Shown: positions 324 through 32,519 of the stretch, in pieces
How the letters are laid out: each line of letters begins with the position of its first letter
How positions within the stretch are numbered: position 1 is the stretch's first letter
Source of the DNA: a virus
Taxonomy: Duplodnaviria > Caudoviricetes
DNA length: 37,036 nucleotides
Strand: one strand, 5' to 3'
IMG/VR virus record: IMGVR_UViG_3300020727_000041
Coordinates: 1-37,036 of that record
Made by a program: the position numbers and the translations under genes
The notes under the pieces: model-generated
Seen by the model: the letters and a program-made list of their open reading frames with translations, nothing else
Told to the model about the DNA's origin: nothing
Database searches by the model: none

Positions 324-527
324 TTATTCTCCTTGAATTGTTGGTGCGATAAATGTATCTGTTGCCGCATCGTAAGTATCGCCAATGCCAGCGTACTTTC
401 CGCGAATACTGCCTGTGTAACTTGTCTGCACCCAAGTACCGCCGAGATTCTTCTCGCACCATTCCTGAGTATCGGCAACAATTACTCGCGCAACTTTGCC
501 GTCAATTATTTCTGCGTAATATTTCAT
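324..527 (-). CDS. small tail-fibre-associated protein
   Basis: 67 aa, TAATG-coupled to the fibre gene; the WVQTSY...RGKYAGIG.TYD...D.FIAP pattern typically follows Gly-rich phage fibre genes. Confidence 0.75.
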   Translation of the reverse strand: MKYYAEIIDGKVARVIVADTQEWCEKNLGGTWVQTSYTGSIRGKYAGIGDTYDAATDTFIAPTIQGE

Positions 528-1801
528 TATACTAAGTACCTCACAATAACAACACCTGATGCACCAACACCAGTTTGCAATCCATTACCGCCACCGCCTG
601 TGCTTGGCGCAGGGTTGCCCGATGTTCCAACGCTTCCGTAACCGCCGTAACCACCGTTGGAATTTGTGCTTGCACCACGACCACCGCCACCGCCAGCAAA
701 ATAAACTGTTCCTGAAACATTTTCACCAGTTCCAGTTGCCAATCCCCAAGAGGAATAAGCAGAAGAACCAACTCCGCCAACACCGCCAGTTGTTGCTGTT
801 GCGTTGCCGCCAACTGCACCAGCACCACCACCGCCGCCACCGCTGCTAGGAGCAAAGCCAGTACCACCAGCATTTCCTTGTCCTGATGTTCCTGAACCAC
901 CAGCAGCACCTTGACCGCCACCACCGCCAGAACCACCAGTTAGACCAGCATTTCCACCGCCAGGTGCACCACCGCCACCTACTGAAGCAGTAAGTGAACC
1001 AAATTGAGAGTTAGTACCACTGGCGCCTGAACCGCTACCACCGCTACCAACCGTTACCGTGTAACCAGTATTTGCGGTAAGAGCCTGTGCGGTAAATCCT
1101 TGCAGACCACCAGCACCGCCACCGCCATAGTTGGCTGCGCCACCGCCACCAGCAACTACGAGAATGTCAGAAGATAATGCTGTGGCTGGGGTAAATGTTC
1201 CTGATGAAATAAATGCGTGATACCAGTAAGTACCGTCAGTCTGAATAATGTTACCGCCAATAGCCTTTGGAGCTTTGGTAGGGGTAGTGCCTACGGCTGA
1301 TACGCCGTATAGGGAGAAGGTTGAGTATTGAACGAAGTTGCCAGCAGTTGATGTAAGAGTCATTGAAGTAATTGCAGAAGTACCAGTCCACAATCCTGCA
1401 TAAAGATATGCAGTTGCGCCAGTGGCATTGTTTTCATTGACTGCATCGGTGCTTACGCTTTTTTGATTAGAACCTGTGTAGTTTGGAATGTAAAACTCAC
1501 CGTTGCCAAAACTGTTGGCAGTATCAGTTGATGAGTCAATGACAAATTGAAGAGAGGTAGTTGTTCCGTTTGCTGAACCAGCAGAAGAACCTGTGCCACG
1601 CGCCCATAGATATTTATAATTAGAACCAGTATCGCTATTGAATTGCGTATTGAAAGAAGTTCCACCAGTATCAGAATTTCTTGCAGAAAACTTCACAACT
1701 AAATCCGTATAACCAGTCTGCGGAATGTTATTGAAGGTAACAGAAGATGTTCCTGCTGCTCCAACTGTAATGCGTTCTAAGAGTACGAGTGTATTTGCCA
1801 T
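527..1801 (-). CDS. glycine-rich tail fibre / receptor-binding protein
   Basis: 424 aa. N-terminal beta-rich domain paralogous to the two upstream genes; C-terminal Gly-rich domain (YHAFISSGTF, LVVAGGGG, GSGGGGG, YFAGGGGG, GASGVVIVRY). Confidence 0.85.
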   Translation of the reverse strand: MANTLVLLERITVGAAGTSSVTFNNIPQTGYTDLVVKFSARNSDTGGTSFNTQFNSDTGSNYKYLWARGTGSSAGSANGTTTSLQFVIDSSTDTANSFGNGEFYIPNYTGSNQKSVSTDAVNENNATGATAYLYAGLWTGTSAITSMTLTSTAGNFVQYSTFSLYGVSAVGTTPTKAPKAIGGNIIQTDGTYWYHAFISSGTFTPATALSSDILVVAGGGGAANYGGGGAGGLQGFTAQALTANTGYTVTVGSGGSGSGASGTNSQFGSLTASVGGGGAPGGGNAGLTGGSGGGGGQGAAGGSGTSGQGNAGGTGFAPSSGGGGGGAGAVGGNATATTGGVGGVGSSAYSSWGLATGTGENVSGTVYFAGGGGGRGASTNSNGGYGGYGSVGTSGNPAPSTGGGGNGLQTGVGASGVVIVRYLV

Positions 1802-1810
1802 TATTGCCCC

Positions 1811-2302
1811 CTAAGCCGCAGTAATTCCGTAGAGTGAATATGTTGTGCCAATTTGCAAAGTACCAACCGCAGTAATCTTTATTGAGTTGATAGCACTGGT
1901 GCTACGCCATAAACCAACAATTGCATCCACACCTGCTGATGCTTGATTGCCTCTGCCTAATGTTGTTTTGTAAGTAGTAGTATTTGAATAATTCATAATA
2001 TGAACTATATAATTTGTTGCACCAGTTGTAGTTGAAGTTGCTTGCCAATCTAAGTAAATATAATTTGAACTTGTTGTGCGGGTAGAACCAGCAGCAGAAG
2101 TATTTGCATAGAGATTGGTTTCGGAATAATTAGTTCCAGTATCTCCATTAAATTGAATATATGTATCGCCTGATGTTGAAAGAGGATTGCATACCAATAT
2201 CAAGTCCGTATAAGTAGATGGGATACTTGAAAAGGTTACACTTGAAGCAGTGCTTGAAAGAGTCGTTGTAAATATCGGAGTATATGTATTTGCTGCTGCC
2301 AT
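1811..2302 (-). CDS. tail fibre-associated protein, paralog of neighbours
   Basis: 163 aa; SVTFSSIPSTYTDL, FNGDTGTNYS, GLWRSTSAINSI, YSLYGI. Confidence 0.8.
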   Translation of the reverse strand: MAAANTYTPIFTTTLSSTASSVTFSSIPSTYTDLILVCNPLSTSGDTYIQFNGDTGTNYSETNLYANTSAAGSTRTTSSNYIYLDWQATSTTTGATNYIVHIMNYSNTTTYKTTLGRGNQASAGVDAIVGLWRSTSAINSIKITAVGTLQIGTTYSLYGITAA

Positions 2303-2303
2303 T

Positions 2304-2879
2304 TTATTTCACTCCGTAAAGTGCGAATTGAGAATACTGCTGAATAGCCGTACCAACAGGAGTTAGCGTAATGCTGTTGATTGCGGCAGTTGATTGCCAC
2401 AGTCCTGATGTAAACCAAATCTGCCCATATCCGCCACCGTTATCATCAAATCCCGAAAGGCTACGAACAGTTTTATATTTATTAGTATTTGCGTAATCCA
2501 AAATATCTAATACGCCTGTTCCAAATATGTTTGATGCTTGAGTATTGCTTGTTGAAGTTCTAAAAGCCAACGGTGTGCTAGAAGAAACATCTGCCGCTGC
2601 CGGCACTGTTGAGCCATTTCCATAAAGTAAATGGTCGGCATAATTAGTTCCACCATCTGCATTAAACATAAAGATGATATTTTCAGCAGTATAGGCTCTG
2701 TTGCCTCTTGATAATGCCCGAATTTGCAAATGCGTATAGGTGCTAGGGATGGAAGTGAAGGTAATACTGCTTGAACCACCAGAGCCTACTGTTACAGTAG
2801 CAATAGAGTCGTAGGCTCCTGATGGCGCCCAAAGGTGGCCTGAAATTTGCGAGGCATAAATACCTAGAATGGGTGACAT
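2304..2879 (-). CDS. tail fibre-associated protein, paralog of neighbours
   Basis: 191 aa; SITFTSIPSTYTHL, FNADGGTNYA, GLWQSTAAINSI, FALYGV. Confidence 0.8.
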   Translation of the reverse strand: MSPILGIYASQISGHLWAPSGAYDSIATVTVGSGGSSSITFTSIPSTYTHLQIRALSRGNRAYTAENIIFMFNADGGTNYADHLLYGNGSTVPAAADVSSSTPLAFRTSTSNTQASNIFGTGVLDILDYANTNKYKTVRSLSGFDDNGGGYGQIWFTSGLWQSTAAINSITLTPVGTAIQQYSQFALYGVK

Positions 2880-3235
2880 TATGCCAAGTCCCCAATCACT
2901 AGCCAGTTATTGGTGCTGGTCTGGATGGCAGAAGCAGCCGAATACTGAACACGAGTCTTTGGCGCAGAGGCTGTAGCACCTGTAGAAGTAATCGTCACAC
3001 CGCTTCCTTGGGTAATGGTTGTCTGACCAGCACCAGTCTGGGCAAAGTTTAACACAGTACCGATAGGAAAGGCTACTGACGAGTTAGGCGGAATAGTCAC
3101 CGTGTTAGCAGAAGCGTTAGCGATAGTGACAAGGGTGTTGTTGCCATCTGCCAAGACAAAGGTATAGGAAGCAGTCTGGGCATTGACAGCAAGGGCTGGA
3201 GTGATGTTGGTATTGGTCAGTAAGGCTACGGCCAT
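2879..3235 (-). CDS. tail fibre domain protein
   Basis: 118 aa; NAQTASYTFVLAD...QTGAGQ...RVQYSAAS...IGDLA, paralogous to the C-terminus of 3546..4280. Confidence 0.8.
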   Translation of the reverse strand: MAVALLTNTNITPALAVNAQTASYTFVLADGNNTLVTIANASANTVTIPPNSSVAFPIGTVLNFAQTGAGQTTITQGSGVTITSTGATASAPKTRVQYSAASAIQTSTNNWLVIGDLA

Positions 3236-3546
3236 TAGAGTGTACTTCCCGTCGCAATAAAGTCAGTGTTACCTGTGGTGGAGTAAACAGTCAGAACATC
3301 GCCTGTGGCAAGTGTCCATCCTGGAGTTTCCGCCAAGGAACTGCTGGCTGGAATGGTGTAGTTATAGAAAAGGTAGTAAGCAGAACCACCAGACTTGGTG
3401 ATGCTGACACGGATTGAATCATTAGTTCCGCCACGATTGCAGGCGCTGAAGGATGAAACAATTGACCCGTTAGTTGAGCCAGTTACCAGCGTTGTAGACG
3501 CTGCTGCTCCTGGCGTTGAGTTACCGAGTACGAGATAGGCTGCCAT
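3235..3546 (-). CDS. virion structural protein, hypothetical
   Basis: 103 aa, Ser/Thr-rich beta-type composition, TAATG-coupled on both sides. Confidence 0.75.
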   Translation of the reverse strand: MAAYLVLGNSTPGAAASTTLVTGSTNGSIVSSFSACNRGGTNDSIRVSITKSGGSAYYLFYNYTIPASSSLAETPGWTLATGDVLTVYSTTGNTDFIATGSTL

Positions 3547-4280
3547 TACGCCAAGTCTCCAATCAACTGGAAGGTGTTGGTAGCCGTGCAGACGATTGAG
3601 GCTGCTGAGTATTGGACACGCAACTTAGTTCCTGTACCTGTGACGGTTGAGGTTCCATCGCCTTGGACGGTTACTTGTCCTGCGCCAATCTGTTGGATGT
3701 TGACAATCTGACCTGCGCTAAAGACACCCGCTGGGACGGTTAGGGTGATAGCACTTGAGTTGTTGAGCGTAACCAACTTGGCCGCATCGGCTAGGACTGG
3801 GGTGTAAGTAGTTCCAGTCTGGGCATTGATACCAATAGCAATTGTTGGGGCTGTACCAAAGACTAGGCTTCCAGAGCCTGTCTCGTCGCTTACAAGGGCT
3901 GCGAGGTTGGCTGAGGTTGATGTACCAAGGAAGGTTGCCAAGGCTCCTGTAACCCCGTGTGCGCCCGCTGAAAGGGCTAAATCATAGTGAGTCTGAGCGT
4001 CAGTTAAATCCTGGGCAGAGACGACGTGGCGTACTGCAGCACCTGTGTTGTGGGCCACAGCGGTTGTTCCATTATATCCACGATTGATATTTAAGGTTGT
4101 GCCTGATATTCCTGTAACAAGCACCAGTTCCTCAGAGGCTGCGTTGAAATCAACTGCGAGGACAAATGGTGTTGATGGGTAACCCACTGTTGCACCAACA
4201 ACCATGCTGGTTGAGGTATTAGTGATGCTTGATGTAAGCGTTGTGTCTTGCGCAATAGCGCTGTAGTAACGTGATGGCAT
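3546..4280 (-). CDS. tail fibre / spike protein
   Basis: 244 aa; N-terminal EELVLVT...RGYNGTTAVAH.G domain, SDETGSGSLVFGTAP motif, C-terminal IGDLA domain. Confidence 0.8.
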   Translation of the reverse strand: MPSRYYSAIAQDTTLTSSITNTSTSMVVGATVGYPSTPFVLAVDFNAASEELVLVTGISGTTLNINRGYNGTTAVAHNTGAAVRHVVSAQDLTDAQTHYDLALSAGAHGVTGALATFLGTSTSANLAALVSDETGSGSLVFGTAPTIAIGINAQTGTTYTPVLADAAKLVTLNNSSAITLTVPAGVFSAGQIVNIQQIGAGQVTVQGDGTSTVTGTGTKLRVQYSAASIVCTATNTFQLIGDLA

Positions 4281-7183: not shown

Positions 7184-9273
<2,090 letters not shown>

Positions 9274-27269: not shown

Positions 27270-27662
27270 GTGGACAACTGGCAGGAATTGGGAGCATGCT
27301 CAGGGACAGACCCAGAAGCATTCTTCCCAGAATATAACCGTGACGCCAACACGCAGAAGGAGCAGATACTAGACGCCTTGCAGGCGTTAAGGGTCTGCTC
27401 TACCTGCACTGTATCCGCTGAGTGCTTCGCCTATGCGATGGCACATGATGACTCAATCAACGCTGGGATATACGCAGGCACTCTCGCATTTGAGAGGCAA
27501 CGCATAGCCAAGAAGCAGGGCAGAGTCGTCATCTCAGGAGGCGCACCACGGTTAGAGCAAGCAATCAGGCGACACGCTAATAGGCAACAAATCGCCGTTC
27601 CCCCGTTAGGAGTAGAGCCATTAAACGAATCACTAAGAAGGCAGCAGCAACGCTCAGCATAG
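27270..27662 (+). CDS. whiB: WhiB family Fe-S transcription factor
   Basis: W....AC...DPEAFFP, CSTC, C, then GIYAGT...ER (variant of G[VI]WGG). Confidence 0.9.
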   Translation: MDNWQELGACSGTDPEAFFPEYNRDANTQKEQILDALQALRVCSTCTVSAECFAYAMAHDDSINAGIYAGTLAFERQRIAKKQGRVVISGGAPRLEQAIRRHANRQQIAVPPLGVEPLNESLRRQQQRSA

Positions 27663-28054
27663 GAATTGTCCTAGCGAGCGCAGTAACGACCCTAGAGGCG
27701 GATAGGAAGGCGATTAAACGCCATCCTAGAACCGCTTTACTACCCACTGTAAGCCAGTTAAAGTCGTGGACACAGAAGCAGTATGGCAAAGACGCCATTC
27801 AATTTGAGTGCCTCGATTTACTCTGGACTATGGAATCCCACTGGAACTATAAAGCAGTGGGAGCAAAGACTCGCCAGGGCTTGGCATATGGAATACCTCA
27901 AGCCTTGCCTGCAATCAAGATGAAAGACTCAGGCGCAGACTACTTGACTAATCCCTACACTCAAATAAAATGGGGCTTACGTTACATAGAACTACGCTAT
28001 AACAACAACGCCTGCTGGGCGTTACGTCACGAACTCAATAAAGGATGGTATTGA
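27620..28054 (+). CDS. secreted SLT-family lytic transglycosylase, apparent ATT start
   Basis: QFECLDLLWTMESHWN, AYGIPQALP, NPYTQIKWGLRYI..RY, GWY. AGGAG lies 7 nt before in-frame ATT 27620, followed by a signal-like N-terminus. The ORF track captures only 27830 onward. Confidence 0.8.
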   Translation: MKRITKKAAATLSIGIVLASAVTTLEADRKAIKRHPRTALLPTVSQLKSWTQKQYGKDAIQFECLDLLWTMESHWNYKAVGAKTRQGLAYGIPQALPAIKMKDSGADYLTNPYTQIKWGLRYIELRYNNNACWALRHELNKGWY

Positions 28055-28213: not shown

Positions 28214-28440
28214 AGGACTGTTTCTGCACCAAGACCTACCAATGCCTCGGATGTGAGAGGCAAGAAGAACGCAAGCAGGCTATTGCAGAAGGCCGTGCAC
28301 TCACTCGCAAAATTGCAGAGTGTGGCACTCGTGCTGGATACAATCGCCATCTTAAACTGAAGGAAGAAACCTGTGCTGACTGTCGTCAGGCGCAGAAGGA
28401 ATCGGTAATGCGGGCACAAGCAAAGAGAAGGGCAGCATGA
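28210..28440 (+). CDS. Cys/His-rich basic protein, probable zinc-binding
   Basis: 76 aa; CFC...CLGC and CGTRAGYNRH......CADC. Confidence 0.75.
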   Translation: MKDCFCTKTYQCLGCERQEERKQAIAEGRALTRKIAECGTRAGYNRHLKLKEETCADCRQAQKESVMRAQAKRRAA

Positions 28441-28631
28441 ACAGAAACGGAAACAAACTAACGCCTGCAGATGCAGCACTTATCCTGGCAGAACTGGATA
28501 GAATTGCAGAACTTGAGGCACAGATACCGCTACGCAAGATAGAACTAGCCAAGAGATTTAATGTAAGCCAGAGCACTCTCACTAAGATTCGCAATGGCAC
28601 CACATGGGGCTGGCTAAGGGAGCAGAAATGA
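28437..28631 (+). CDS. small HTH DNA-binding protein
   Basis: 64 aa; LAKRFNVSQSTLTKIRNGTTW. Confidence 0.8.
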   Translation: MNRNGNKLTPADAALILAELDRIAELEAQIPLRKIELAKRFNVSQSTLTKIRNGTTWGWLREQK

Positions 28632-29392
28632 ATGAGCCAATAGTATTCGTAGCCATCCTGGCCAAGCAGAAGGAAGCAATGCTCCCTGCCTGGCTGGAAT
28701 CGCTGAGCCAATGGGATTACCCAAAGGACAAGATGATTCTCTGGGTACGCAGTAACAACAACACAGATGGCACTGAGGCTATCTTGCGCAAATGGGTTGA
28801 AGAGAATGGCAAGTGGTATCGCTTTGTCATTGAAGACTATAAGAACATTGACGCACCAGTGCAGGAGTATGGCGTACATGAATGGAATCCTGTGCGCTTT
28901 AAGGCGCTCGGTGCCCTACGTGAGGCCAGTGTTGAGGCTGCTTGGTATGCAGAGGCAGACTTCTACTGGGTTGTGGATGTAGATAACTTCGTCAAACCAC
29001 ATACGCTACGCACAATGGTAAGTTACAACCTGCCAGTGGTGGCACCAATGCTGGGCAGTGCAGACCCAGAGCAACCTGCTTACTCTAACTATCATCTCCT
29101 CGCCAATGTGCGAGGCTACTTCCTTGATGACATCCGCTACTACCAGGTACTCAAGCAAGAGATTAAAGGCTTGATAGTCTGTGATGTGGTGCACTGTACC
29201 TATCTCATTCGCAAAGATATTCTCACCAAGATTCTCTATGTGGATGGCACTGATGACTACGAGTATGTCATCTTCAGTCGCAACCTACGCAACCTGGGCA
29301 TCCCGCAGTACCTGGACAACCAGGAAATCTTTGGCTATCTCTCAACGCGTGAGAACCTTAAGGCAATTCAGGAGAAGATGAATGGCAATTAA
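28628..29392 (+). CDS. GT-A glycosyltransferase resembling the N-terminal domain of procollagen galactosyltransferase (COLGALT1-like)
   Basis: Start ATG 28628 (ATGA overlap); VFVAILAK, DYPK, NNNTDGTEAILRKW, DVDN, PVVAPML, YSNY, VHCTYLI. Confidence 0.8.
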   Translation: MNEPIVFVAILAKQKEAMLPAWLESLSQWDYPKDKMILWVRSNNNTDGTEAILRKWVEENGKWYRFVIEDYKNIDAPVQEYGVHEWNPVRFKALGALREASVEAAWYAEADFYWVVDVDNFVKPHTLRTMVSYNLPVVAPMLGSADPEQPAYSNYHLLANVRGYFLDDIRYYQVLKQEIKGLIVCDVVHCTYLIRKDILTKILYVDGTDDYEYVIFSRNLRNLGIPQYLDNQEIFGYLSTRENLKAIQEKMNGN

Positions 29393-29678
29393 GCCAACGG
29401 AATTAAAGAAGTTGGTGGCGCTCCTAGATGAGGAAGCGCCATCGGCTGAGTGGTTAGCCAAAGCAGTATGGGAATTGGTAGAAGAACTGATGGCGCAACG
29501 CACGCAGTATGTTGTCTACGCCATCCACCCAAGCCTCAATATCGTGCAGGCAGTTGGCCCATATGCAACAAAAGATAAACTGTTAAAAGATTATTCAAAG
29601 CGTATTCATGCTTACGACAAGCACTCTCGTGCTATCATTGCAGAGTTAAAGCATCCAAGTGTGATAACAAAGGATTAA
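29382..29678 (+). CDS. hypothetical protein
   Basis: 98 aa, AGGAG RBS, VGPYATK motif; last gene of the plus operon. Confidence 0.75.
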   Translation: MAIKPTELKKLVALLDEEAPSAEWLAKAVWELVEELMAQRTQYVVYAIHPSLNIVQAVGPYATKDKLLKDYSKRIHAYDKHSRAIIAELKHPSVITKD

Positions 29679-29787
29679 CACGGAGTCCGTCCTTTCACCG
29701 TGTTAATGGGCCAGTCTCCTCAGACCTTCCACTGAGTTGTAGCGGCAAGACAAAAGCCTCGGCGTAAAAACCGAGGCTTTATCTTTT
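29674..29787 (+). ncRNA. candidate 3'-UTR small RNA with anti-Shine-Dalgarno loops
   Basis: ATTAACACGG/CCGTGTTAAT stem (loop AGTCCGTCCTTTCA), CTCAG/CTGAG stem (loop ACCTTCCA), then a terminator. Confidence 0.5.
29752..29787. terminator. bidirectional Rho-independent terminator
   Basis: AAAAGCCTCGG-CGTAAAAA-CCGAGGCTTTATCTTTT between convergent operons. Confidence 0.9.
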
Positions 29788-29804: not shown

Positions 29805-30461
29805 CTAAATCTGGTGTAGTCCGCCTGCAGTATCCTTATAAAATCCATAACCTGTTGGCGTTAGTGTGAATGGTGTAGGCACAGCCTCAATGAATGAGTA
29901 TGGAGCCTTGCCATTGACATCATAGAACGATGGGAATGTCCAATTGGGTGCAATAACATCCTTGCCATCACGTGAGACAATTCTGTAGAGCAAGCCACGA
30001 ACATGGTCTGCTGGCTCTAGCAACCAGGTACGGCCCTTGCTATCTGGCTTAGATAGGTTGGTAATAGTTGGGTCAACCAACATCTCAATGACTTCATGGA
30101 AGACAACTGTTGCCGTGCCCTGCTCGTATCTATCTTTAGATAGCACAAGATTCTTGTAAGAGATGCCCTTACGGAACTTACCCAGCGGTGCATTACGGAA
30201 TGACCCGCCTAAGATGTAGGCAATAGGCTGACCGTTCAACACTTCATGGTAGCCGTAGGCTTGCAACGACTGTGGGAAATGGTCCACAACACAGACGTTC
30301 CAACCATTGGCTGAGCGTGTGTTAGATGAAACAACAACTGTCTCTTCTAGGTTCCACGCCTGCACTACTTGATTAACAAAGATGCCCAGTGCCGAGCCAA
30401 TACTGGCAAAGTCTGGCGCTGCTAAATACTTTGACTCATTAACAAATGTAATCGTTCTCAT
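29805..30461 (-). CDS. putative zinc metalloprotein / peptidase-like protein
   Basis: Start moved to ATG 30461; GYH...HEVIEMLVDP...EPAD...NWTFPSFY. Confidence 0.7.
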   Translation of the reverse strand: MRTITFVNESKYLAAPDFASIGSALGIFVNQVVQAWNLEETVVVSSNTRSANGWNVCVVDHFPQSLQAYGYHEVLNGQPIAYILGGSFRNAPLGKFRKGISYKNLVLSKDRYEQGTATVVFHEVIEMLVDPTITNLSKPDSKGRTWLLEPADHVRGLLYRIVSRDGKDVIAPNWTFPSFYDVNGKAPYSFIEAVPTPFTLTPTGYGFYKDTAGGLHQI

Positions 30462-30462
30462 C

Positions 30463-30639
30463 TTACCGCCTCGCATTATCTGTTGAATAGAAACCTGACG
30501 CATTAAAACTTACTCCTGGCACTGTATACATACGCCCCATCGTTTGATTACAGCATACAGGATTGTCCGCCTCAGCGTGGATGCTACGCTCCACAGTCTG
30601 CTCGCCACCACAGATTACACAACGATAGTCATACTGCAT
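30463..30639 (-). CDS. FmdB-like zinc-ribbon protein, not in ORF track
   Basis: 58 aa; MQYDYRCVICG...CC...M.R.Y.......F..SGFYSTD. Confidence 0.85.
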   Translation of the reverse strand: MQYDYRCVICGGEQTVERSIHAEADNPVCCNQTMGRMYTVPGVSFNASGFYSTDNARR

Positions 30640-31803: not shown

Positions 31804-31949
31804 TAGGATGCGCTCTTATCTCCGCTTAGGATTCGCAAGGCCCAGTCAAGCCCAGCGTTAAAGCCTTCCATCCAATCAAAGTCTTTAGACTCCAATGGAA
31901 CGCTTGTCTTAGCCGCCTCAATCTTGTCCTTAACTTTGTTCAGGTCCAT
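31803..31949 (-). CDS. 48-aa microprotein, not in ORF track
   Basis: TAATG overlaps at both ends; GFNAGLDWALRIL. Confidence 0.7.
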   Translation of the reverse strand: MDLNKVKDKIEAAKTSVPLESKDFDWMEGFNAGLDWALRILSGDKSAS

Positions 31950-32326
31950 TACTTCGGCCACTTACCTCGCTGAACCATGAGTGCAATGACAGCATAATTA
32001 GCCATGTCCTTAAATGAATCCTCAACAGGCTCGTGTTTAGGAACCGAGCCATTGCGATAAAGATTTTTAAGACGCTCAAACTTATCGCCAATACGCACAA
32101 GCAGGCCATTAATAGGACCGCCAAAGGCATTGTTAATATTGCCAGGACCATAGTCCATCTGCTTCGAGATAAGGAGGTTGCCGATTTCATCCATTATTTC
32201 CCAGACAGCGGACGCGAATTCGGTATCTGAACCAACAACTGGTTGCTTGTCTTGTCCAAAGAGATAACTTTCAGCCCAATTGACTGAATCAATTTGATTG
32301 CTAATTCGATGTCCTCGCTCATTCAT
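31949..32326 (-). CDS. nucleotide modification associated domain 1 (Nmad1/DUF1599-like)
   Basis: KQMDYG, GLLVRIGDKFERL, EDSFKDMANYAVI; start taken at the ATG best spaced from GAGGAG. Confidence 0.82.
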   Translation of the reverse strand: MNERGHRISNQIDSVNWAESYLFGQDKQPVVGSDTEFASAVWEIMDEIGNLLISKQMDYGPGNINNAFGGPINGLLVRIGDKFERLKNLYRNGSVPKHEPVEDSFKDMANYAVIALMVQRGKWPK

Positions 32327-32519
32327 CATCATTCTCCTCTGGTGCAAACACACCTGCGTAGTAATAGGACTTGTCTTCGTAATTCAATATGTATCTGTGC
32401 AGAAAAATACCATCTTTGCTTTTCTCCTGCAGGTCAATCTCATCTAATACCCAGAGCATCTCAGGCACTGGCGAGCCATCCTTTGGCCCATACATAAACG
32501 TTGGGTATCTAGTTGCCAC
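32319..32519 (-). CDS. hypothetical protein
   Basis: 66 aa, GPKDG motif, overlapping neighbours. Confidence 0.65.
   Translation of the reverse strand: MATRYPTFMYGPKDGSPVPEMLWVLDEIDLQEKSKDGIFLHRYILNYEDKSYYYAGVFAPEENDDE

Follow-up and report, generated by a model that had tools for sequence, protein, structure and literature searches.

A free-standing phage relative of the N-terminal domain of COLGALT1, encoded together with a threonine-rich collagen, is a candidate glycan-extending enzyme

We describe a phage protein (hereafter the GT-A protein) that is a free-standing homologue of the N-terminal domain of the collagen galactosyltransferase COLGALT1 and that shares its genome with a threonine-rich collagen-like fibre and a GT2-TPR protein (Table 1). 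In our favoured reading, which we hold at slightly better than even odds (about 0.55), it is an active, metal-dependent glycosyltransferase that extends the Thr-O-glycan set by the GT2-TPR protein on the G-X-T collagen fibre. The window, i.e. the whole stretch of DNA that was analysed, is IMG/VR record IMGVR_UViG_3300020727_000041, linear, 37,036 bases long and estimated to be 89% complete. Pfam and PHROG scans of its 55 ORFs identified terminase, portal, major capsid, SU10-type adaptor, whiB and a sigma-70 factor. The whiB gene serves as an indicator of actinophages (PMC10202952), and the host is likely to be a freshwater actinobacterium of the acI type.

Table 1. Coordinates of the window features discussed in the text
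Feature	Position	Strand	Basis and remarks
Ser/Thr/Gly-rich tail-type genes	527..4280	-	Candidate alternative acceptors; common to large WhiB phages with the glycosyltransferase pair in the fibre operon
GT2-TPR protein, 355 aa	6104..7171	-	SgtA/GmaR-like architecture; predicted priming protein O-glycosyltransferase
Collagen-like fibre protein, 580 aa	7184..8926	-	PF01391 E 7e-52; tail-fibre PHROGs; predicted acceptor
Non-collagenous middle domain of the fibre	7655..8116	-	Predicted TNF/C1q/BclA-CTD jelly roll
whiB	27270..27662	+	PF02467 E 4e-14; same block as the GT-A gene; actinobacterial-host marker
Shine-Dalgarno-like AAGGGAG	28616..28622	+	5 nt before the ATG of the GT-A gene
Stand-alone GT-A domain protein, 254 aa	28628..29392	+	Homologue of COLGALT1 GT1/NGT and of the PLOD/R699 accessory domain; DxD at 117-119
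Terminator-like hairpin	29753..29780	+	Closes the plus-strand block after ORF 29382-29678; consensus match only
DUF1599 gene, nucleotide-modification-associated	31949-32353		Pfam

The GT-A protein, its relatives and its donor pocket

The upstream ORF 28437-28631 overlaps the start of the GT-A gene by ATGA. The ribosome site, this overlap and the starts of homologues favour 28628 as start codon over an alternative at 28604. All motifs that an earlier note on this DNA had listed were found within the ORF, in the order given there. The gene belongs to a plus-strand block of small ORFs including whiB, which may be expressed early; a hairpin scan of the window gave 7 hits against 4.6 expected, and a promoter scan found nothing beyond chance (5 against 6.4). 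The gene is under purifying selection, with a dN/dS of 0.05-0.13 in 12 of 13 pairs with close homologues (one pair being saturated). Neither a signal nor a membrane segment was found in the ORF translation and the AlphaFold model, whose first strand begins at residue 6, and no family in NCBIfam or PHROGs covers the protein. The same region holds a 74-aa fragment with a partial SLT transglycosylase match (27830-28054, plus strand; Pfam E 2e-4; phrog_12661 residues 114-182) and, just downstream of the block, a 232-aa ORF (29805-30503, minus strand) that is patchy in relatives and had no Pfam, PHROG or NCBIfam match; its HEVIE motif is presumably zincin-like.

Sequence and structure comparisons agree with the homology to the COLGALT1 N-terminal domain and the PLOD domain that the earlier note had claimed. 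Among PDB sequences, phmmer matched COLGALT1 across residues 3-240 of the GT-A protein (E 3e-25) and PLOD3 residues 273-493 (E 2e-9), the next match being a GT2 enzyme at E 0.003. With an AlphaFold model of high confidence (pLDDT 95.7; 74 sequences), Foldseek ranked COLGALT1 best (TM 0.86; PLOD3, TM 0.75), while VIA returned COLGALT1 residues 49-318 (Z 29.9) and mimivirus R699 residues 250-455 (Z 22.3), followed by Mnn9 (Z 20.9) and SpsA (Z 17.4). Thus, COLGALT1, and not an unrelated GT2 or Anp1 enzyme, headed both structural searches.

Homologues were collected by a word-based search (316 proteins of similar length), a representative search (758 at E up to 0.001), a viral search (223 matches, of which the best 80 were kept) and a search of GTDB genomes (147 matches at 42-66% identity, 79 loci kept). 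The closest relatives are actinophage and bacterial proteins (42-66% identity), as opposed to 27-28% identity with animal ones. Many of the 64 representatives scanned, out of 150, carry GT2, GT25, methyltransferase or sulfotransferase domains, and many family members match Anp1; the GT-A protein itself gave no Anp1 match in Pfam at E 0.01. A tblastn search of 50,697 GenBank phage records (E 1e-3) returned no match, and hence no cultured host system was found. In the open-access literature that was searched, neither phage or bacterial homologues of the COLGALT1 N-terminal domain nor a bacterial two-domain COLGALT turned up; a single listing that named COLGALT1 together with viruses concerned poxvirus proteins. 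A BLAST with this domain, as given in the accessible text of PMC12003778, reported only vertebrates, invertebrates and giant viruses.

The label of a procollagen galactosyltransferase-like enzyme, under which the protein had been introduced, is not supported, since the match is to the non-catalytic half of COLGALT1. This N-terminal domain is reported to bind metal and UDP-Gal yet to be inactive, catalysis residing in the C-terminal GT25 domain (PMC12003778, PMC12987934), and the isolated domain (NGT) is described as inactive and allosteric in its action (PMC12987934). Its equivalents in PLOD and R699 are accessory domains (PMC12279948), and the PLOD AC domain, according to PMC12003778, binds neither metal nor donor. 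The catalytic GT25 domain with its EDD motif and base D522 is absent from the GT-A protein, whose ORF stops at 254 aa, and GT25 (PF01755) was found neither in its own record (0/1; 89% complete) nor in related ones (0/10). Besides, Pfam and PHROG scans of the window detected no lysyl hydroxylase, and the collagen of the window holds no Lys, just as the earlier note had cautioned when it set hydroxylysine aside as the acceptor. With a match to the N-terminal domain only, no GT25 and a Lys-free collagen, the protein is not a hydroxylysine galactosyltransferase.

Compared with the N-terminal domain of COLGALT1/GLT25D1 (PDB 9evj, 8zgc, 9u7j), the GT-A protein shares the fold, the DxD motif and the residues of the nucleotide-sugar pocket at 27-28% identity, but it stands free of the GT25 half, has Glu for D265 and His for K133, and shows extra conserved His, Asp and Gln residues. 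Its predicted acceptor is Thr-rich rather than hydroxylysine-based, and the human domain is inactive. With COLGALT1 numbering taken from the phmmer alignment and the contacts to UDP-Gal and metal as named in PMC12003778 and PMC12987934, seven pocket contacts are identical (COLGALT1/GT-A protein: L59/L11, W135/W86, R139/R90, R147/R98, D166/D117, D168/D119, H235/H189) and five are conservatively replaced (GT-A protein/COLGALT1: K13/R61, N43/D91, H84/K133, L94/V143, E212/D265). These residues are invariant among 74 close homologues, and most of them are 87-100% conserved (E85, 79%) in 299 domains (67 phage, 82 from bacterial loci, 150 representatives). The family also conserves polar residues that COLGALT1 lacks (H156, D206, Q227, D230). 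The PLOD3/LH3 and R699 AC domains are likewise related, but where the PLOD one is said to bind neither metal nor donor (PMC12003778), the GT-A protein keeps the pocket residues, and it stands alone.

At the position of the usual inverting base, the family has no Asp (E212-Y213), and the C-terminal metal His is not conserved, position 237 being variable. For COLGALT1 itself the role of D265 is disputed: of PMC12003778 and PMC12987934, one sees no acid at the base position, whereas in the other D265 lies close to the anomeric carbon. The closest active enzyme by fold is Mnn9 (CAZy GT62, Pfam Anp1; 11-14% identity), a retaining enzyme for which Arg and DxD are essential and which has E364/T365 at its donor-sugar site (PMC3787745). 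The latter pair appears to occupy the equivalent of E212-Y213. With GT62, the GT-A protein shares the GT-A fold, D117-x-D119 and a conserved R98, provided that the residues correspond to those of Mnn9 as we infer; it lacks an Anp1 match, a type II membrane anchor and the conserved C-terminal metal His. Judged from the alignments, the donor site is intact, but sequence as such cannot decide on catalysis.

Collagen fibre, GT2-TPR partner and phage loci

The collagen of the window comprises 127 Gly-X-Y triplets, with Thr at Y in 94 of them. Its middle domain had no match in a sequence search; a model of it (pLDDT 71.9; 6 sequences) was matched by Foldseek to 4-1BBL, the BclA CTD, ExsFA/BxpB and C1QL (E about 1e-5, TM 0.6-0.7), so that the phage fibre resembles BclA in its predicted C1q domain. 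The GT2-TPR gene, assigned by Pfam GT2 and TPR, phrog_13126 (E 3e-76) and a profile match to GmaR (E 5e-5), follows 12 bp downstream. This arrangement is reminiscent of Clostridioides difficile SgtA, a 358-aa GT-A+TPR protein encoded beside bclA3 that adds beta-O-GlcNAc to Thr in the GPT collagen repeats of BclA3 (PMC7157674), although BclA3 is a spore protein and the phage collagen a virion fibre. The likeness to SgtA is one of architecture, the only sequence match being that to GmaR. Across 71 related collagens, the median share of Thr at Y is 0.77 and Lys at Y makes up at most 2%. Collagen is present in 71 of 80 GT2-TPR loci, and eight of the other nine are cut within 800 bases upstream. 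A complex prediction of the GT2-TPR and GT-A proteins scored 0.00 in two runs and was weighed neither way.

In the small-genome family to which the window belongs, the GT-A gene sits between whiB and the counterpart of ORF 29382 among the loci listed. Capsid loci with enough flank hold collagen (20/21) and GT2-TPR (21/21) after the capsid gene, and the GT-A gene is present in 16 of the 25 terminase loci that span its region. Collagen and GT2-TPR occur without it in G027, G054 and G057-G059. Since the record of G054 is complete, the GT-A gene must be accessory in this family; and as collagen and GT2-TPR are near-universal there, with or without it, their co-occurrence is uninformative at this level. 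An apparent exception with the GT-A gene and no collagen (G007) was discarded, as its record ends about 150 bases past the capsid gene. A single capsid locus (L294:3338-4420) has GT2-TPR directly after the capsid gene and no collagen in its 10-kb flank, which may point to another acceptor.

Scanning viral contigs with a bacterial-type alignment added 76 loci, 67 of them outside the small-genome family. GT2-TPR abuts the GT-A gene in 48 of these 67 (44 tandem, 4 convergent; the 48 pairs amount to four clusters at 70% identity) and is fused to it in two more, while collagen lies within 10 kb in 19 of the 67. In the large-phage group, 11 of 12 records contain collagen somewhere in their sequence. 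In L457, L474, L485, L486 and L443, collagen and Ser/Thr-rich tail-type genes form an operon that closes with the pair. The GT2-TPR protein of L457 is 43% identical to that of the window, and window positions 1811-2302 are 50% identical to L443:5355-6659, from a large WhiB phage. Near several of the large-phage loci listed, we found whiB, GT25, GT4, sulfotransferase or sugar-biosynthesis genes. This placement in the fibre operon weakens the objection, raised in the earlier note, that the gene belongs to the early operon, and the position beside whiB is likely derived, the gene having moved there secondarily from the fibre operon. As a side observation, the WhiB phages L457, L474, L485, L430 and L443, of up to 133 kb, carry several collagen genes around the GT2-TPR/GT1 pair as well as glycan cassettes (GT25, GT4, sulfotransferase, APS kinase, epimerase, DegT aminotransferase).

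In a quick tree with 73 rows (SH-aLRT only, midpoint root, no animal or Mnn9 sequences), both phage clades, two actinobacterial and two other viral members, and two nested Comamonadaceae copies formed one group (SH-aLRT 98). The pure phage clade of a first quick tree was an artefact of a 70% filter that had dropped L081, L082, L130 and L102. The Comamonadaceae copies (MAGs L081 and L082:7884-8801) stand amid housekeeping genes (rpe, apaG, thiL, purE) with no collagen nearby, and are likely the result of phage-to-bacterium transfer.

Fusions and neighbours in bacterial genomes

Of the 79 bacterial loci, 48 encode the domain as a fusion with a GT2-TPR homologue, and a collagen ORF lies within 8 kb in 44 of the 79, Thr-rich in 42 cases. 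By chance, about 1% of stretches of this size would hold collagen, as estimated from five collagen-positive genomes that together have some 20 collagen places in 33 Mb. The 79 loci are not independent, 10 being from Mesorhizobium, but the positive ones span Alpha-, Beta- and Gammaproteobacteria as well as Bacillota. Co-occurrence with collagen, a check that the earlier note had proposed, is therefore found, and the pairing with GT2-TPR is borne out by these fusions together with the abutting viral genes. Close homologues of the window's GT2-TPR protein are themselves fused to the domain (P0145, E 1e-62; P0233, E 5e-55), and 28 of 150 representatives match GT2-TPR at E up to 1e-3. In Bacillus L148 and Paenibacillus L142 and L159, the three parts are separate neighbouring genes accompanied by nucleotide-sugar genes, the unfused operons reading collagen-ManC-GT-A-GT2TPR in L148 and collagens-GT2TPR-GT-A in L159.

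GT25 is fused in 13 of the 79 loci. A 934-aa protein of Mesorhizobium jarvisii (L102:6789-9593) is a GT2-TPR::GT1::GT25 triple fusion in which residues 404-890 align in one stretch to both COLGALT1 domains, with linker and FEDD kept (E 1e-40), and the N-terminal part matches GmaR (E 1e-8). A G-X-T collagen of 370 triplets is encoded at a distance of 2 kb. The triple fusion recurs in eight other Mesorhizobium loci (in L101 with the GT25 part split across two ORFs), whose collagens, where present, reach 456 triplets and have 94-100% Thr at Y. A split COLGALT arrangement was seen in two actinobacterial MAGs (L130:5207-6816, L136:465-2074), where a stand-alone GT1-like gene overlaps a GT25 gene directly downstream; the L130 pair follows bacA/uppP, and neither flank holds collagen.

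Proposed reaction, competing explanations and wider meaning

In the favoured reading, the GT2-TPR protein would prime Thr at the Y position of the fibre with a sugar, as SgtA does on BclA3. The GT-A protein would then extend or branch this glycan with a nucleotide-sugar of the host, possibly with retention like the structurally related Mnn9. The glycan would stabilise the hydroxyproline-free triple helix, Thr glycosylation having been cited as a collagen stabiliser (PMC3368898), or modulate how sticky the fibre is and how the host is recognised. Further acceptors may exist among the other Ser/Thr-rich tail proteins. The accessory status of the gene fits an optional second sugar. Of the two-step pathway advanced in the earlier note, the pairing with GT2-TPR thus stands on fusions, operons and context, whereas catalysis, the sugar and the order of priming and extension are only inferred. 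Phage-encoded glycosyltransferases are known to modify virion proteins of the mycobacteriophages Che8, Corndog and Myrna (PMC11256854, PMC12363180, citing Freeman 2023), though there the acceptors are capsid and tail tube instead of a predicted collagen fibre. The GenBank phage collection in which the GT-A protein had no tblastn match may not include Che8-type records.

Several observations count against this reading. The characterised close homologues (COLGALT1 NGT, PLOD, R699) are all non-catalytic, and the missing inverting-base Asp and C-terminal metal His would weigh in the same direction. Some 20 kb separate the GT-A gene, which has small non-structural genes around it, from the collagen gene on the opposite strand. 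Some phages have collagen and GT2-TPR without it, only 7 of 25 stand-alone bacterial copies have collagen nearby, and the L082 copy sits in a housekeeping context.

The main rival, which we consider doubtful, is that the protein is a non-catalytic, nucleotide-sugar-binding helper of the GT2-TPR protein or of a GT25 enzyme of the host, acting as stabiliser, scaffold or allosteric regulator. Such a role is suggested by the inactive, UDP-Gal-binding and allosteric human NGT (PMC12987934), whose pocket chemistry is the same (D-I replaced by E-Y), and by the fact that the domain mostly resides in multi-domain proteins, 125 of 150 representatives being longer than 330 aa. In addition, 22 of 79 bacterial loci have GT25 as a fusion partner or neighbour, and in the actinobacterial sister copies of L130 and L136 it follows immediately downstream. 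However, the phages maintain the GT-A gene on its own and under strong selection, with 20 kb between it and any partner and no GT25 in their genomes; its partners vary (GT2-TPR, GT25, methyl- and sulfotransferases) in the manner of modules of a glycan assembly line; and the family conserves polar residues that are missing from COLGALT1. Moreover, Mnn9 is active with E-T at what seems to be the same position (PMC3787745).

Alternatively, the protein might act on the host early in infection and alter surface glycans or glycoproteins, e.g. for superinfection exclusion. We regard this as unlikely. The gene stands beside whiB in all small-genome loci among those listed, it is patchy, a copy nested in the phage clade resides in Comamonadaceae genomes away from collagen, and such a role has been proposed for glycosyltransferases of Planktophila phages (PMC10202952). 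But neither a signal nor a membrane segment occurs in the protein, related large phages hold the gene at the end of the fibre operon beside GT2-TPR, and the bacterial context is one of collagen protein glycosylation. A DNA-modifying glycosyltransferase that shields the genome from restriction, as also proposed in PMC10202952, would fit the non-structural neighbours and the DUF1599 gene but is highly improbable, given that no DNA glucosyltransferase was among the listed Foldseek and VIA matches, that Pfam and PHROG scans of the 55 ORFs revealed no partner for base modification (a hydroxymethylase or TET, for instance), and that the family keeps company with collagen and GT2-TPR. Weakest of all, a true procollagen (hydroxylysine) galactosyltransferase has in its favour that COLGALT1 is the best match in sequence and structure, but with the non-catalytic half matched, GT25/EDD and collagen Lys absent and no lysyl hydroxylase in the scans, it can practically be dismissed.

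A broader scenario may be put forward, tentatively and with less confidence than the reaction itself. The family might represent the still-active ancestor of the COLGALT/PLOD pseudo-enzyme domain and stem from a prokaryotic and viral line of collagen glycosylation, in which GT2-TPR primes Thr, the GT-A domain extends and GT25 adds more; the animal two-domain COLGALT would have been recruited from this line, whose GT1::GT25 tandem already stands beside G-X-T collagens in Mesorhizobium, and freshwater actinophages would use the two-enzyme core for glycosylated collagen fibres. Why COLGALT1 retains a conserved, donor-loaded but inactive domain is left open in PMC12003778 and PMC12987934, one of which urges more work on this domain while the other brings up shared ancestry with PLOD. 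A free-standing 254-aa homologue with a candidate acceptor and a candidate priming partner in one genome allows an ancestral activity to be tested directly, and a bacterial protein that aligns to both COLGALT1 domains next to a collagen gene is relevant to how collagen glycosylation arose in animals. Members of the family are candidates, too, for the enzyme that extends glycans on bacterial Thr-collagens, which the SgtA authors, in the accessible text of PMC7157674, sought without success. If true, phage virion glycosylation would gain a new acceptor in the collagen fibres of abundant freshwater actinophages, with a possible use in engineering stable recombinant collagens.

The domain further occurs in giant-virus bins (L413, L417, L418, L420), with up to three copies and a 239-triplet Thr-rich collagen in L417 and a fusion to GT2-TPR in L418. 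In L145, L150 and L153, stand-alone copies are convergent to Lys-containing, Thr-rich collagen genes less than 700 bases away, and in a 124-kb phage (L076:9216-10001), the GT-A gene directly follows the gene of a 261-aa hydrophobic membrane protein that had no Pfam match.
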